The notes below the pieces were generated by a model. That model ran no database searches. It saw only the letters and a program-made list of their open reading frames with translations, and had not been told where the DNA came from. From Candidatus Daviesbacteria bacterium (GTDB taxonomy: Bacteria > Patescibacteriota > Microgenomatia > Daviesbacterales > UBA10151): a stretch of DNA of 64,000 nt. The position numbers and the translations under genes are program-made. The stretch is taken from NCBI GenBank assembly GCA_016184225.1, contig JACPDA010000004.1, positions 538,763 to 602,762 of the forward strand, given 5' to 3'. Shown here piece by piece: positions 14,297 through 56,097 of the stretch; the stretch's first letter is position 1, and each line of letters begins with the position of its first letter.

Positions 14297-16108
14297 GTGT
14301 ATTCAATTTGCAAAAGATGGTATATTGAGTTTGTGGAAATCTCTAATGCTAAGGTTGCTAAAATCCTCAGGAATGTAGCTGCGGCTTATTCCCTCAAAAA
14401 GATTGGTAATATTTTCCAGATTCGTGCCTATGAGAATGCTGCAGATAGCATAGAACAATCTAATGCCGAAGTTCTTGACCTATGGCAGGAAGGTAGGCTC
14501 CCGGAAATTCCCAACTTGGGGACAAAGCTTCAAGAGTATTTAAACGAATTATTTACCACCGGTAAAGTCAGGCATTTTGAAGCGGTGCAAAAGGGGGTAC
14601 TGCCGGTTATATTTGAACTTCTAGATATTCCGGGGGTAGGTCCCCAAACAGCCATGAAATTGGCAAAATTAGGCATTAAGCACATAGAGGATCTAAAAAG
14701 CGGGATTAAATCAGGGGCATTAGTTGAAAAAGGTTTTTCAGCTAAGGTTGCAAGAAGAATTATGGATGGCATTTTAGAATTATCAAGCAGGCAGGGCAGG
14801 ATGCTGCTGCCGTACGCGGCCGTACAGGCAGATAAGATTTTAAATTATTTAAAGAAAAGCCCGGAAATACTACAGGTATACCCATTAGGGTCCTTACGAA
14901 GAATGGTGGCAACTGTGGGAGATTTAGACTTTTCCGTCAGCTCGAACAAGCCTGGGGCGGTTGTTGAATACTTTTGTAGGATGCCGGGAGTAGCCCGGGT
15001 GGTTGACCAGGGTGAAAACAAGGCTACAGTGGTTCTTAAGGGGGGTTTCCAGGCGGATTTATTAGTTGGGAAGCCGGATAGTTTCGGGGCGCTTTTGCAG
15101 CACTTTACAGGCTCTAAAGCCCACAATATTAAGCTGAGGACTCTGGCGAACAAAAATGGGCTTTCTTTATCCGAATATGGAATAAGGAAAGTGACTAGAG
15201 TCAAGAGTCTAGAGTCAAAAGAAGAATTAATAAAAACAGAGACAGAAGAGGAATTGTATGGACTTTTAGGGATGCAGGCTCCCCCGCCGGAGATAAGGGA
15301 AGATACCGGAGAAATTGAGGCTGCCCTGGAACACAAACTGCCACATCTGGTGGAGCTAAAAGACATTAAAGGCGACTTGCATACTCATTCAAGTTTTCCT
15401 TTTCCTCATCCTTCCCATGGCCCTGGTGCAAATCCTATTGAAGAAATAGTGGAGAGAGCAAAAGATTTAAAGTATGAATTTATCGGGATTGCAGATCATC
15501 CGCCTGGCTTTACTTCGCTCTCAGCATCGCAGATTGTTGAAGCACTTGTAAAGAGGACAAAATTTATTCAATCATTAAATTCGAGGACAAATGGTATTCG
15601 AGTATTAAATGGCCTCGAAGTAGATATACTTGGGGATGGATCATTGAGTGTGCCTGATGAGGCGTTGGAGACTCTTGATTACTGTATTGCCGGTATTCAC
15701 TCCGGCCACAGGGGTTCTAAGGAAGAGATCACTAAAAGATTGCTATCAGCTTTAGAAAATCCTTATGTAGATATAATTTCCCACCCTACCAATAGGTTAC
15801 TTAACGAGCGGGAGTCATCTGATGCTGATTGGGAAGAGATTTTTAAAGTTGTTGCTGAAAATCACAAAGTTTTGGAGATTAATGCATACCCCAACAGGTT
15901 AGATTTAAGAGATGATCTGGTCAGGGAGGCGTTGAAGTTTGGAGTCAAGTTTATTATAAATACTGATAGCCATGAGGTTTCTCAGATGGAAAACATGCGG
16001 TTTGGGGTGGCAGTAGCGCGTCGGGGCTGGGCAGAAAAAAAAGATGTAGTTAATACCTGGGACTGGACAGACTTTGCCAAATGGTTTAAACTGACAAAGA
16101 AGAGATGA
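14297..16108 (+). CDS. polX: DNA polymerase X family protein with C-terminal PHP domain (PolX)
   Basis: Pol-beta nucleotidyltransferase motif [11 protein letters not shown], HhH regions, and PHP motifs DLHTHSSF...ADHPP. Carries an in-frame GAGTC-repeat segment at 15194..15222 ([10 protein letters not shown]). Confidence 0.75.
15194..15222. repeat. GAGTC/CTAG-rich repeat element, copy inside polX
   Basis: gactagagtcaagagtctagagtcaaaag. Confidence 0.7.
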
Positions 16109-16653
16109 TCACATATATCATAATCGGAGCAGTAGTTTTAATAGTTTTGTGGTTGCTTGCCACATACAATGGCCTAGTAACCTTGCGGAATCGGGTTCGG
16201 GAAGCCTGGTCGCAAATTGATGTTCAACTCAAAAGAAGATCTTCTTTAATCCCCAACCTGGTGGAAGCTGTTAAAGGCTATACCAAGCATGAAAAAGGGG
16301 TATTGGAAGAGGTAACTAAGGCCAGAACTTCTTTAATGGGGGCTAAGGACCCGCACCAGGCAGCTGAAGCCAATAATATGCTGACTGATGCCTTAAAAAG
16401 CCTTTTTGCTGTAGCTGAGAATTATCCACAACTTAAGGCTTCTGAAAATTTTAAACAACTCCAGGATGAGCTATCTGATACGGAAACAAAAGTGGCGGCC
16501 TCCAGGCAGTTTTATAACACTAATGTAATGGACCTAAATAATAACTTGGAAACCATTCCTTCAGCCTGGGTAGGCCAAATGTTTGGCTTCCAAAAGGAAG
16601 AATTCTTCAAAGCTACTGAGGAAGAAAAAGCTGATATAAAGGTAAAATTTTAA
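16105..16653 (+). CDS. lemA: LemA family protein
   Basis: N-terminal TM helix and the LemA signature [22 protein letters not shown]. Confidence 0.75.
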
Positions 16654-16852
16654 TTTCTTCAGGAAATCAGCTCGTCACAGTACAAAAAATCGCTCACACG
16701 CTAGTGTCGTTGATCGCTTGTGAGCATTTTGTGTCTAATATGTTCTCGAATCATTAAGGTATTCAGCACAAAATCCTCAACATTTTTTGTTTACCTGTGA
16801 CTTCGCTGCTTTTAGTGCAAAGGTGTACAGAAAGTAGTAGAATAAGCTCGCT

Positions 16853-53081: not shown

Positions 53082-53169
53082 CCCCTATTCAAATCTTGCA
53101 AAATAAGTTAAAATAGATGCTTAATTTCGGGAAAAATTCGTCCTTCGACGTTGCTCAGGATTATAACCT

Positions 53170-56097
53170 ATGGCTATAGACAAAATTATCATCAAAGGTG
53201 CTAGAGAGCATAATCTCAAAAATATTGACCTGGAAATTCCCAAGAACAAATTGGTGGTTTTGACTGGTATTTCCGGTTCAGGCAAGTCTTCTTTGGCTTT
53301 TGATACCCTTTATGCGGAAGGGCAGCGCAGATATGTGGAATCCCTTTCTTCCTATGCCAGGCAGTTTTTAGGGGTGATGGATAAGCCTGATGTGGATTTG
53401 ATTGAAGGGCTTTCTCCGGCCATCTCCATTGACCAAAAAGGTGTTTCTCACAATCCCAGATCTACAGTCGGTACCACCACAGAAATATATGACTATTTAA
53501 GGTTATTGTTTGCCCGGGTTGGCCATCCCCATTGTCCCATTTGCGGCCGGGAGATTTCCAAGATGTCAGTGGAACAGATTGTGGAAAGAGTGACTAGTGG
53601 CAAGAGTCTAGAGTCTAGTAAAAAAGGTATGAGAATAATGATTTTGGCCCCTGTAGTGAAGGACAGAAAAGGGGAATATACACAATTATTTGAAGATTTC
53701 CGGAAGAAAGGTTTTTCTAAGGCTAGGATTGACGGGCAAGTTAGGAACCTCTCCGATGATTTAGTCTTAATTAAAACCAACAAACACACGATTGATTTAG
53801 TGATAGATCGTCTAGTAATAGAGTCAAGAGTCAAGAGTCAAGAGTCAAGTGAATCGCAGTCTAGACTCTCGATTCTAGCGACTAGACTCTTGCAATCTGT
53901 TGAAACAGCACTCAAATTAGGAGAAGGGTCTGTAATTGTGTCCGAAGTTCTAGACGTTGCTTTGGAATTTCCTCAGAACCCCAAGAAAATGAGCGATCAT
54001 CTTTACTCTGAACGATTCGCTTGCCCAGTAGATAATATTTCCCTTCCCGAGATCGAACCAAGGCTGTTATCTTTTAATTCTCCTCATGGGGCTTGTTCCG
54101 GCTGCGCCGGATTGGGAACACTGCTCGAGATAGATGAAAAGGCTATTTTAAACCCCATTCTTTCAATCGCGGAAGGTGGGATACTCCCCTGGTCAAAATT
54201 GGCCAGCAATGACACTTGGTTTACCAGACTAATCCAGGCTGTTGGAAAGGAATACGGATTTGATTTAAATACCAGGCTGGGGAATTTAACAGCTGAAGCT
54301 CGGAAAATCCTACTTTTTGGGGCAAAAGATGAGCAGTTTAAAGTAGAAGGCAGGAACAGACAGGGCAGATGGACCCATTTTTATTCTGAATTTGTCGGAC
54401 TGGTAGCATACCTTAAGCAAAGATACCAGGAAACTGAGTCAGACTTTGTCAAAGCTGAAATAGAGAAGTACATGTTTAAGGAGACCTGTCCAAAGTGTAA
54501 GGGTGCCAGGTTAAAGGATGAGGCTTTGTCAATCACCATAGAGGGATCAAATATTGCTGAGGTAACTAGCCAATCAATAGTTCAGAGCTTAGAGTGGATA
54601 AAAAATATTAGGCTCTCTGATCGGGAAAACCAAATTGCCACTCCGGTATTGAAAGAAATTAAATCCCGGCTGCAGTTTTTAATTGATGTTGGTTTGGATT
54701 ATTTAACTTTGGATCGGGCTTCCATGAGCTTAGCCGGCGGAGAATCACAGCGGATCAGGTTGGCTTCCCAAATCGGCTCCGGGTTATCCGGAGTTTTGTA
54801 TGTCTTGGATGAACCGTCCATTGGCCTGCACCAACGGGATAATTCCAGGCTGATTGAAACCTTGAAGAGATTAAAAAACCTGGGCAATACAGTTATTGTT
54901 AATGAGCATGACACGGAAACCATGGAGGCGGCGGATTTATTAATAGAAATCGGGCCGGGAGCAGGCGAGCATGGAGGGATGATTGTTTTTATCGGCACCC
55001 CCGCAGAGATTAAAAAAAGTGAAACATCTTTAACAGGCCAATATCTTTCAGGCAGGAAGCAGGTTAAAGTAGCAGATGAGTTAAAAAGGGAACCGGTAAA
55101 AATGGGTACTTTGAAGATTCTCGGAGCCAGCCAGCATAACTTAAAAAACATTAATGTCTCTTTTCCTTTGGGAAGATTCATAGCCGTAACCGGTGTTTCA
55201 GGTTCAGGCAAGTCAACTTTGATTCACGATATTCTATATAAAGCATTGGCACAAAAAGTTTACCGCTCCCGAGAGAAAGCCGGATCCCACAAAGGCATGG
55301 AAGGGGTAGAAAACTTGGATAAGGTAGTATTGGTGGATCAATCGCCTATTGGTAGGACTCCCCGCTCAAATCCGGCAACTTATACCGGAGCTTTTACTTT
55401 CATCAGAGAACTATTTTCTGAGAGCCCGGAAGCTAAAATCAGGGGTTATGGGCCTGGCAGGTTTTCTTTTAATGTTAAAGGCGGCAGGTGTGAGGTTTGC
55501 GAAGGTGAAGGGACTTTAAAAATTGAAATGCAGTTTTTACCGGATGTTTATGTCACGTGTGAAGCCTGCAACGGAGCCAGGTATAACCGGGAGGCTTTGG
55601 AGATTCATTTTAAGGATAAAAACATTGCCGAAGTGCTGGATATGACAGTTGAGGAAGCCTTAAAGTTTTTTGAAAACATCCCGCAGATAAAAAACAAGCT
55701 GCAGGTTTTGTTTGATGTTGGTTTGGGTTATATCAGGTTAGGCCAACCTGCGCCTACTCTTTCAGGAGGCGAGGCCCAACGGATTAAGCTTTCTGCGGAG
55801 TTATCTAAGCGTTCAACCGGGCAGACCATGTATATCCTGGATGAACCAACTACTGGCCTTCATATGGCAGATATTGAAAGGTTATTAACTATCCTGCGAA
55901 AGCTGGTTAATTTTGGCAATACAGTAGTGATTATTGAACATAATTTGGATGTAATTAAAAATACCGATTGGGTAATTGATTTGGGGCCGGAAGGCGGGGA
56001 TAAAGGTGGTAAAGTAGTAGCAGAGGGAACTCCTGCAGAATTAGCCAAAGCTAAAGATTCCTACACCGGCCAATATCTGGCAAAAATTTTGCACTAA
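53170..56097 (+). CDS. uvrA: Excinuclease ABC subunit A
   Basis: Two ABC ATPase modules ([20 protein letters not shown]) and zinc-finger Cys pairs. In-frame GAGTC-repeat insertions at 53593..53619 and 53811..53893. Confidence 0.9.
53593..53619. repeat. GAGTC/CTAG-rich repeat element inside uvrA (first site)
   Basis: gactagtggcaagagtctagagtctagt, read as TSGKSLESS. Confidence 0.65.
53811..53893. repeat. GAGTC/CTAG-rich repeat element inside uvrA (second site; 4x tandem gagtcaa plus a palindromic arm)
   Basis: tctagtaatagagtcaagagtcaagagtcaagagtcaagtgaatcgcagtctagactctcgattctagcgactagactcttg, read as [23 protein letters not shown]. Confidence 0.75.

Follow-up and report, generated by a model that had tools for sequence, protein, structure and literature searches.

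A miniature palindromic element built of GAGTCNA heptamers in DNA-repair genes and between gatA and gatB of a Candidatus Daviesbacteria bacterium

Introduction

Palindromic elements that lie in frame within conserved proteins are reportedly known from Rickettsia, where Ogata et al. are said to have described them in 2000 as Rickettsia palindromic elements (RPEs). RPEs measure about 100-150 bp and fall into consensus families of their own; to our knowledge they are restricted to Rickettsia and are not built of tandem heptamers. Here we report on a dispersed palindromic element in a stretch of 64,000 nt (the window) from a Candidatus Daviesbacteria bacterium, a member of the candidate phyla radiation (CPR; Patescibacteria). 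Five loci of the window, situated in polX, in uvrB, twice in uvrA and at the junction of gatA and gatB (gatA|gatB), are built of tandem 7-nt units that consist of GAGTC, followed by A, T or G, followed by A (GAGTCNA). They belong to a dispersed family whose sites are empty in close relatives, whose copies can arise by insertion or by overwriting, whose genic copies are sense-oriented and free of stop codons, and whose arms differ in length by whole units.

Repeats of 7-nt period have a longer history. The short tandemly repeated repetitive (STRR) heptanucleotide sequences of cyanobacteria were reportedly recorded by Mazel et al. in 1990 and are said by Vioque (1997) to occur inside the RNase P RNA gene, and an excess of heptamer simple repeats in bacteria was reportedly noted by Mrazek et al. 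in 2007. Known uptake sequences occur at about one per kb; in Neisseria and Haemophilus they are said, after Davidsen et al. (2004), to be biased toward genome-maintenance genes. Miniature inverted-repeat transposable elements (MITEs) are found within ORFs in, for example, Coxiella (PMC5896051), and the Correia elements of Neisseria are another bacterial case. Two papers, both of which cite Mrazek et al., record the bacterial heptamer excess, with a proposed link to the polymerase footprint and slippage, and describe heptamer repeats as mainly intergenic and under-represented in coding regions (PMC4692102, PMC4679880). Repetitive extragenic palindromic (REP) sequences and their hairpin-forming doublets (REPINs) are short and mostly extragenic, a doublet of inverted arms and a spacer making one long hairpin (PMC3116915, PMC3733652), and REP sequences are recognised by a conserved tetranucleotide, GTAG or CGTC, with which an imperfectly palindromic stretch of 20-40 nt begins at its 5' end (PMC3733652). 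Our literature search found no account of such repeats or elements in CPR/Patescibacteria.

Results

The five loci form one repeat family

Scanning of the window with GAGTCNAGAGTC, which represents two adjacent units, gave 14 matches with at most 1 mismatch against 0.33 expected, and 0 of 100 shuffles reached 14. The three-unit pattern with at most 3 mismatches gave 15 matches against 0.06 expected, confined to the five loci. A chance origin of the arrays was ruled out by the shuffles, and the two-unit matches bear out a previous reading of the window made from its letters only (hereafter the sequence-only reading), which had proposed a true repeat family; the five motif sites that it listed were all present. 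Tandem Repeats Finder returned period 7 at every one of the five sites and detected a 4.3x GAGTCAA run at 53820-53849, which corresponds to the 4x tandem gagtcaa of that reading, and translation of PolX, UvrB and UvrA agreed with the four in-frame copies and the peptides quoted for them (SGKSLESS at UvrA site 1). The remark that scarcity of CTAG makes a CTAG-rich element odd also holds for the window, where CTAG is depleted: it occurs 88 times instead of an expected number of about 200, and 19 of these occurrences fall inside the five loci. The perfect palindrome GAGTCTAGACTC was not recovered: the exact 12-mer is absent and only one-mismatch forms occur, such as cAGTCTAGACTC at 53857. The lone GAGTC pentamer showed no enrichment in the window (72 against 63.5 expected). 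An assembly artefact was ruled out since independent NCBI, JGI, ENA and Logan assemblies hold the same copies.

In a protein search the window's UvrA matched a Candidatus Daviesbacteria UvrA with 100% identity, and its nearest relatives are all Daviesbacteria, Microgenomates or Patescibacteria. The close-ortholog loci compared below were L119-L124 and L147-L150.

Structure and genomic setting of the complete element

The two hairpin-type copies of the window share the odd unit CTAGCGACTAG. A metagenome scan that required TCTAGCGACTAG within 10-40 nt after a left array yielded 22 copies, no two of them with the same flanks, on contigs whose G+C content was 34-44%; these copies share non-consensus units (TCTAGCGACTAG), and a subset has a similar loop. 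The full element consists of a heptamer left arm, an A/T-rich loop and an inverted right arm. The aligned copies gave a left-arm consensus of (TA)G(T/A)G(A/T)C(T/A)AG. GAGTCNAGAGTC(T/A)AG, the arm often beginning with (TA)GTGACTAG, and a right-arm consensus of CTAGA(C/T)TCTAGA(C/T)TCTAGCGACTAG(T/A/C)C(A/T)CTA; the loop measures 0-35 nt, usually about 10-25, and in a subset includes a purine-rich ACAGRAAGGAG-like sequence. TA is common at the element ends.

Twenty-one of the 22 metagenome copies were not spanned by an open reading frame (ORF). In 12 of the 22 copies, as at the window's gatB, ...CTAGCGACTAG is followed 8-11 nt further on by an ATG, and in several other metagenome copies the left end is directly adjacent to a start codon of the opposite strand. 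The usual home of the element is a very short intergenic spacer, 2-5 nt upstream of a start codon. What the sequence-only reading pictured as a mini-repeat mostly inside genes is in its full form a palindrome of about 65-95 nt that is usually intergenic; the in-gene copies are exceptional, and three of the four are left arms only. A profile hidden Markov model (HMM) built from the alignment of palindromic copies detected further in-frame left arms in groES (L040), carB (L020) and a membrane protein gene (L049) of relatives and in rplE of a Saccharimonadales genome (L008). Across 252 kb of DNA from Daviesbacteria, its matches outside uvrA/uvrB came to about 1 site per 20-30 kb.

Compensatory changes were seen in none of 24 or 12 predicted pairs (5 orthologous uvrA copies; 23 unlinked copies), so that covariation neither supports nor refutes the hairpin structure. 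A known RNA family was rejected, as five tRNAs were all that Rfam matched in the window at gathering thresholds.

The inverted arms, whose ends can be recognised as (TA)GTGACTAG...CTAGTCAC(TA), and the occurrence of copies in 22 different contexts would suit a non-autonomous MITE or REPIN moved in trans, either by an HUH enzyme of the REP-associated tyrosine transposase (RAYT)/IS200 type acting on the single-stranded hairpin or by a TA-targeting DDE enzyme, the in-gene copies being ordinary insertions that were tolerated. We consider this explanation unlikely. Among the 23 aligned copies the ends are ragged and the arms vary in length in 7-nt steps; neither GTAG nor CGTC heads any of these copies, whose ends are of the type TAGTGACTAG / TAGAGTCTAG. 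Further evidence on both sides is given with the loci concerned.

The copy at the gatA|gatB junction

The palindromic copy at 20933..21014 on the + strand, with its left arm at 20933-20961, loop at 20962-20983 and right arm at 20984-21014, gave the highest-scoring match to the family HMM (full length, 70 bits, E=1.7e-20). Its 82 nt are placed directly after the final sense codon of gatA and directly before the ATGA in which the start of gatB overlaps a stop codon; in the window gatA occupies 19550-20989 (stop TAG at 20987-20989) and gatB 21022-22347. Folding of the copy, which the sequence-only reading had suggested, gave a hairpin of -32.7 kcal/mol (z=-4.4), and an intrinsic terminator was not called at this junction by the consensus scan.

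In L147 and L148 gatA and gatB overlap at ATGA and no element is present; in L149 and L150 the junction is occupied by an element, as in the window. The sequence-only reading had the copy filling a gatA-gatB spacer; the copy does sit there, but the spacer did not exist beforehand and is present because the element is there. Moreover, the canonical GatA C-terminus is ...EKPKL, and the window's GatA continues for 18 residues translated from the left arm and loop, so that this part of the copy is a GatA tail. The copy has split two formerly overlapping genes and extends GatA.

The copy is bordered by TTA on both sides (20930-32 and 21015-17), and the same junction has been occupied repeatedly in different lineages, both of which would favour a MITE or REPIN mobilised by a transposase. 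Against such an origin, target-site duplication is not established, and 4 extra bases at the gatB side of the junction do not fit a simple target duplication.

Copies within polX, uvrB and uvrA

The polX gene (14297-16108, assigned by its Pfam domains) holds a left-arm (half) copy at 15191..15218 (+), GTGACTAGAGTCAAGAGTCTAGAGTCAA, which encodes VTRVKSLES in frame and matches positions 10-38 of the family HMM (left arm only). The site adds 9 residues relative to Thermus PolX. The block is missing from the L147 ortholog (KKIKGKLVKTET) but is present in L148, where its DNA is identical; in the PolX of other Daviesbacteria the site is occupied by blocks of +7 aa that derive from other heptamer families.

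In uvrB (51060-53081) an in-frame array of left-arm type is located at 51850..51885 (+; site A) and matches HMM positions 6-41, again the left arm only. L120 and L123 encode DLTERLKELKAKGK or DLGARLKELKKQGK where the window, L119, L121 and L124 have the GAGTC block, and the lengths are identical. The sequence-only reading had taken this copy for a replacement because the homolog's length was kept, and the close orthologs confirm a block replacement of the same length. At a second uvrB site, in L121, EIEKRVVDHE has been overwritten by 10 other residues with unchanged length, through about 14 substitutions in 24 nt between conserved flanks on either side.

The uvrA gene (53170-56097) has two sites. 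Site 1, at 53589..53620 (+), is a four-unit heptamer array, GTGACTA GTGGCAA GAGTCTA GAGTCTA GT, which encodes TSGKSLESS, opens with the terminal GTGACTAG of the element and matches the family HMM through the left arm only. Here 119 of 119 Daviesbacteria orthologs are hypervariable over about 8 residues, and in the 7 orthologs compared at the DNA level this segment consists of four heptamer units whose family depends on the genome (GTGACAA, GTGATAA, AAGTCAA or GAGTCTA). Site 2, at 53816..53890 (+), is a full palindromic copy in frame, with the left arm at 53819-53849 ((GAGTCAA)x4), the loop at 53850-53860 and the right arm at 53861-53890; it matches the HMM over its full length with 62 bits and folds into a hairpin of -27.9 kcal/mol (z=-3.05). 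Most of the 119 orthologs read DTKVIHEQTFTSRLS or similar at site 2, and a patchy subset carries the repeat peptide, namely the window, L119, L121, L122 and L123 and, in part, L124, P0103 and P0118. Presence was likewise patchy on the UvrA neighbour-joining tree, and both the site 2 copy and the uvrB copy are missing in L120.

Relative to Bacillus UvrA the two sites amount to +6 and +15 aa, and site 2 to +9 aa relative to the common Daviesbacteria state DTKVIHEQTFTSRLS. The insertions of roughly 6 and 15 residues announced by the sequence-only reading hold against solved UvrA structures (6 and 15); against close orthologs site 1 is no insertion, each of them having its own hypervariable four-unit segment. 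The Bacillus, Thermotoga and Thermus homologs are without elements, in line with lineage specificity, and so are some Daviesbacteria orthologs of 79-90% identity.

Both uvrA sites fall within the UvrA_inter domain of Pfam (residues 134-259), which here exceeds its profile by 21 residues and which we take to be the UvrB-binding domain. The AlphaFold model of UvrA has a mean predicted local distance difference test (pLDDT) score of 68.9, with values below 50 at the inserted residues 144-151 and 220-230. To judge from such predictions, the protein changes are most likely confined to disordered or helical surface segments.

Reading-frame tolerance and nucleotide conservation

A pure (GAGTCTA)n array contains TAG in every frame. 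In every in-frame copy, an N that coincides with codon position 1 is A or G, and T is confined to positions 2 or 3; in the right arm of uvrA site 2 the intergenic consensus CTC TAG ACT is replaced by CTC TCG ACT, which removes the in-frame stop. The coding copies are all sense-oriented, and antisense TTGACTC/TAGACTC arrays contain TGA or TAG. Within genes only sense, in-frame and stop-free copies survive, which explains the absence of T at codon position 1 and the TAG to TCG change in uvrA.

Among genomes with uvrA DNA 71-80% identical, third-codon identity at uvrA site 2 was 72-92% inside the element and 31-54% in 100 flanking codons (p 4.5e-5 to 3e-3); at uvrB site A it was 73-91% inside and 43-57% in the flanks. 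Divergence restarts right at the element boundaries, which rules out a recombination tract that moved the element between lineages. The GAGTC core is invariant and the N position variable. Orthologous copies agree in N-pattern and loop while the paralogous copies of the window do not, which rules out strong homogenisation within the genome. The third-position conservation may be due to selection on DNA or RNA, to recent transfer limited to the element, or to re-copying. Three of the five sites lie in uvrA/uvrB, which make up 7.7% of the window (p=0.004), and four of the five in uvrA/uvrB and polX (p=0.0006), both tests being post hoc.

These observations would also be expected if the arrays were functional nucleic-acid signals maintained by selection or molecular drive, such as a motif resembling the DNA uptake sequence (DUS), a protein-binding heptamer array or a regulatory mRNA hairpin, with the peptides as a by-product. 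The sharply bounded third-codon identity (72-92% inside, 31-57% in the flanks), the invariant core, the post hoc concentration in repair genes, reminiscent of the bias reported for the uptake sequences of Neisseria and Haemophilus, and the stable hairpins adjoining start codons all agree with a signal, and overwriting at the same length is the expected product of uptake-biased homologous replacement. We nevertheless hold a signal to be distinctly unlikely: the density is low for uptake sequences (5 loci per 64 kb), the single GAGTC is unenriched, compensatory changes, an Rfam family and a terminator call are all lacking, and copies occur also in groES, rplE, carB and a membrane protein gene. 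In addition, several unrelated heptamer families behave alike (see below), which argues against one specific signal. A broader proposal is that the arrays are nucleotide-level signals written and maintained by a sequence-directed process (uptake-biased recombination or a hairpin-copying enzyme) that overwrites coding DNA at equal length, favours repair genes and acts across phyla, the cyanobacterial STRRs included; we regard it as very unlikely.

Two further candidates were rejected. A phase-variation switch for repair genes has no specific support, since arrays are also found in gatA, gatB, groES, rplE and carB. For a diversity-generating retroelement, inspection of the sequence, with no formal search, showed no pair of template and variable repeats, and the changes are not adenine-specific.

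Other heptamer repeats

Period 7 alone was enriched in the window, with 4 exact runs against 0.03 expected, and the heptamer families of the window and its relatives comprise GAGTCNA, GGTKACA, CTGATAG, AAGTCAA, GTGATAA, GAAATTA, AATGTAC and GAATTAA. The repeat of the sequence-only reading is accordingly to be described as a 7-nt tandem unit, of a period that is enriched generally, and other heptamer families are in frame as well. The GGT(G/T)ACA family occurs in frame in gatB at 21328-21365 (GGRLQVTGDRGQD) and 21868-21891 (DRLQVTVD) and in uvrB at 51677-51700 (QGYRLQF). The gatB block GGRLQVTGDRGQD replaces NGWIEVDDGNVNK of L147 at equal length, and another gatB site has (GAATTAA)x5 in L148 and (GGTTACA)x2 in the window. 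The uvrC genes of relatives hold (GAAATTA)5 or (AATGTAC)4 at one site, and the steps of +7 aa in PolX correspond to 21 nt, or 3 units. GDRLQVTG is a peptide that other Daviesbacteria also have at their UvrA and PolX hot spots.

A scan with one genome per species found (GAGTCNA) arrays of >=3 units at no fewer than 118 loci. Among the matches listed were Planctomycetota, Acidobacteriota, Gemmatimonadota, Bacteroidota, Nostocales, Verrucomicrobiota and other CPR, and these matches included many long arrays, arrays with an inverted array nearby and arrays adjoined by other heptamers. GAGTCAA/AAGTCAA units were found in Nostoc and Calothrix. By our own arithmetic about 70 chance matches to 17 fixed bases are expected, so that it is the extension and pairing of the arrays, and not the number of matches, that show them to be real.

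Independent local microsatellites would account for part of this picture, each array having grown in place by slippage of a chance heptamer duplication, and the loci resembling one another through a general preference of the polymerase for 7-nt units together with selection for a stop-free hydrophilic peptide. The enrichment of period 7 for many unrelated units in the window and relatives, the 7-aa (21-nt) steps of PolX, the presence of (GAGTCNA)n arrays in many phyla and the bacterial heptamer excess, with the polymerase-footprint link proposed in the papers cited above (PMC4692102, PMC4679880), all point that way. Nonetheless we find such an origin extremely unlikely, and it is strongly disfavoured: unlinked copies share non-periodic oddities (the TAGCGAC unit, the GTGACTAG ends and the purine-rich loops), the 82-nt gatA|gatB palindrome has a clean empty site in relatives, and replacement of a block at the same length is impossible by slippage.

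Array-loop-inverted-array hairpins were also observed at L122 13099-13178 (GTGATAC/GTGATAA) and L049 6091-6149 (AGTTCGT/AGTTATG); since other heptamer families form such hairpins, the palindromic architecture is not special to GAGTCNA. In the gatB-dnaE spacer of the window a perfect (CTGATAG)x3.7 array at 22452-22480 extends into the ATG at 22478, which is the first one in frame with dnaE and precedes the conserved MARFVHLH start by 16 nt. A degenerate period-7 run of TAGAAGA/TGGAAGA (6.9 copies, 65% matches) lies between two ORFs at 32843-32890, and a related unit may be the source of the EDGRWKMEDG-type peptides that other genomes have at the PolX hot spot. In a metagenome-assembled genome of Planctomycetaceae (L002) a hairpin of (GAGTCCA)x4, loop and (TCGACTC)x4 at 5953-6066 ends about 10 nt before a sequence encoding IVIRGAAQHNLQGIDVTVPRDRI, presumably the N-terminus of UvrA; this proximity to uvrA may be a coincidence.

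The RAYT-like gene and further in-gene repeats

A RAYT-like Y1 (IS200-type) transposase gene is located at 57721-58368 on the - strand (Pfam Y1_Tnp, 27 bits, cut-off 23), and homologs lie near uvrA in L121 and L124. This would supply the enzyme for a MITE or REPIN moved in trans. However, the best NCBIfam match, REP_Tyr_transpos, scores 56 bits, under its cut-off of 80, and the gene is flanked by a different repeat, TTTAGCTTTACACCTTCGAGGTG, and not by the GAGTC element. Nor does insertion by cut-and-paste or copy-and-paste give half copies or replacements of the same length.

The repeat TTTAGCTTTACACCTTCGAGGTG stands on both sides of the RAYT-like gene (57684-57706 and 58377-58399). This 23-mer is also found in frame inside gatA at 20222-20244 with no net change of length, inverted REPIN-like doublets of its 13-nt palindrome occur at 35499-35539 and 35758-35794, and a further repeat of the same group lies at 40-53.

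Identical perfect 38-nt hairpins (CACTCCCGGTGTG-TCAAGTCAATTC-CACACCGGGAGTG) are in frame in uvrB (52274-52311) and uvrC (60898-60935) and constitute a second family of in-gene palindromic repeats. The uvrB hairpin adds 16 residues and is absent in 6 of 6 orthologs, and the uvrC hairpin lies at a position of variable length in every relative. At 454 aa, the product of uvrC (60379-61743) is longer than the 420-436 aa of relatives; apart from the hairpin, about 17-20 residues that the relatives do not share are inserted near residue 46 (GAISYGVNLTHPGGVQGSHL), and PAGG is inserted near residue 343. At the UvrA and PolX hot spots, P0008, P0013, P0015, P0022, P0050, P0070 and others carry longer inserts (VIASEAKQS...PRNDK, VILSEAKN...PQDDRK, HPELVSGS...QVRNDK and PESITKDSGQARMTK), which look like translations of other palindromic repeat families.

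One of the genomes compared, GCA_964489875.1 (L119, L147 and L020; contigs CAZAZW01...), bears the title 'uncultured Gammaproteobacteria bacterium'. Its UvrA shares 90% identity with the window's Daviesbacteria UvrA and its gene order is as in the window, and the taxonomic label is probably wrong.

Discussion

The explanation that we favour, with a confidence slightly better than even, is that the five loci are copies of one dispersed miniature palindromic family that spread by patch copying and are largely passengers. New copies would arise by templated patch copying started at microhomology, in which one dispersed array serves as donor to another through template switching or short-tract gene conversion. 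A periodic donor could re-anneal in any 7-nt register, which would lead either to insertion or to replacement at equal length, and slippage might afterwards change the number of units in an array. Tolerant surface segments of conserved proteins have received full copies or left arms, and at gatA|gatB copies uncouple two formerly overlapping genes. The same-length replacements at uvrB site A, at the second uvrB site of L121 and at gatB GGRLQVTGDRGQD cannot come from plain insertion or slippage; template switching or short-tract conversion would be the simplest process that gives insertions, half copies and equal-length replacements alike. The copies themselves are most likely selfish or near-neutral passengers.

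Several points weigh against this explanation. No copying event was seen directly and no donor-recipient pair was found. Orthologous copies are more alike in N-patterns and loops than paralogous copies within the genome, which argues against strong ongoing homogenisation, and the high third-position conservation is unexplained by a purely neutral, selfish model. The same gatA|gatB junction and the same uvrA site are occupied in distant lineages, and repeated occupation of the same sites would be easier to reconcile with a site-specific enzyme than with template switching at random; 1.6 kb downstream of uvrA there is also a gene for a RAYT-like transposase. Finally, the comparison covered 64 kb of the window genome and about 190 kb from relatives, whose loci were picked via uvrA, gatA or the motif itself.

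Comparison with the known systems indicated an element of mixed character. The sequence-only reading had likened the copies to in-frame RPEs, and the functional analogy is fair: small dispersed palindromes of a reduced genome lie in frame at surface positions of conserved proteins without destroying the protein, as seen in uvrA, uvrB and polX, with hairpins of -27.9 and -32.7 kcal/mol and low pLDDT at the insertions. There is no relation in sequence or size. The Daviesbacteria elements consist of 24-95 nt of GAGTCNA heptamers, which by description sets them apart from RPEs, and their in-gene copies are mostly halves, some of which overwrite, while full copies are mostly intergenic and close to start codons.

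With REPINs the element shares its short size and mostly extragenic doublets of inverted arms, 21 of the 22 metagenome copies being free of ORFs and all having the order arm, loop, inverted arm. It differs in that the arms are ragged tandem heptamers and that copies are in frame in genes; the RAYT-like gene of the window is flanked by the CACCTTCGAGGTG family, so that no RAYT gene flanked by GAGTC arrays is seen in the window. The resemblance to STRRs lies in tandem 7-nt units, in several families per genome and in frequent inverted pairs near gene starts and ends; the period-7 excess, the several unit families and the differences between relatives by whole units were all found here, and STRRs provide a precedent for insertion at a tolerant helix of a functional gene. 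Unlike STRRs, the Daviesbacteria copies are in frame in housekeeping protein genes and belong to a composite element with conserved non-periodic units copied between loci.

Uptake sequences (the DUS and the uptake signal sequence, USS) are likewise short motifs with inverted pairs between genes, tolerated frames within genes and conservation at the nucleotide level, and both they and our arrays are said to be enriched in genome-maintenance genes. The Daviesbacteria density, 5 loci in 64 kb, is much lower than one per kb, the motif is a tandem array and not a single 9-12-mer, and several heptamer families coexist. Like the MITEs of Coxiella (PMC5896051), the element is small and has inverted repeats, and some copies are fused to a coding sequence or lengthen it, as in the GatA tail; it differs in the internal 7-nt periodicity of its arms, in its ragged termini and in having no known parent insertion sequence, no autonomous insertion sequence with the same termini being seen in the window or in the relatives' loci. 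Since the element behaves like RPEs without their sequence or size, forms the doublet of REPINs without their tag or a cognate RAYT, and is made of STRR-type units, we class it as a link that joins heptamer (STRR-type) repeats with REPIN/MITE-like miniature palindromic elements.

STRRs have been on record since 1990 and the bacterial heptamer excess since 2007. The element described here offers a testable system for the spread of heptamer repeats and for the remodelling of protein surfaces by small repeats in reduced genomes, and for annotators it means that the lineage-specific GDRLQVTG-type and GAGTC-derived peptides in CPR proteins are repeat-derived.

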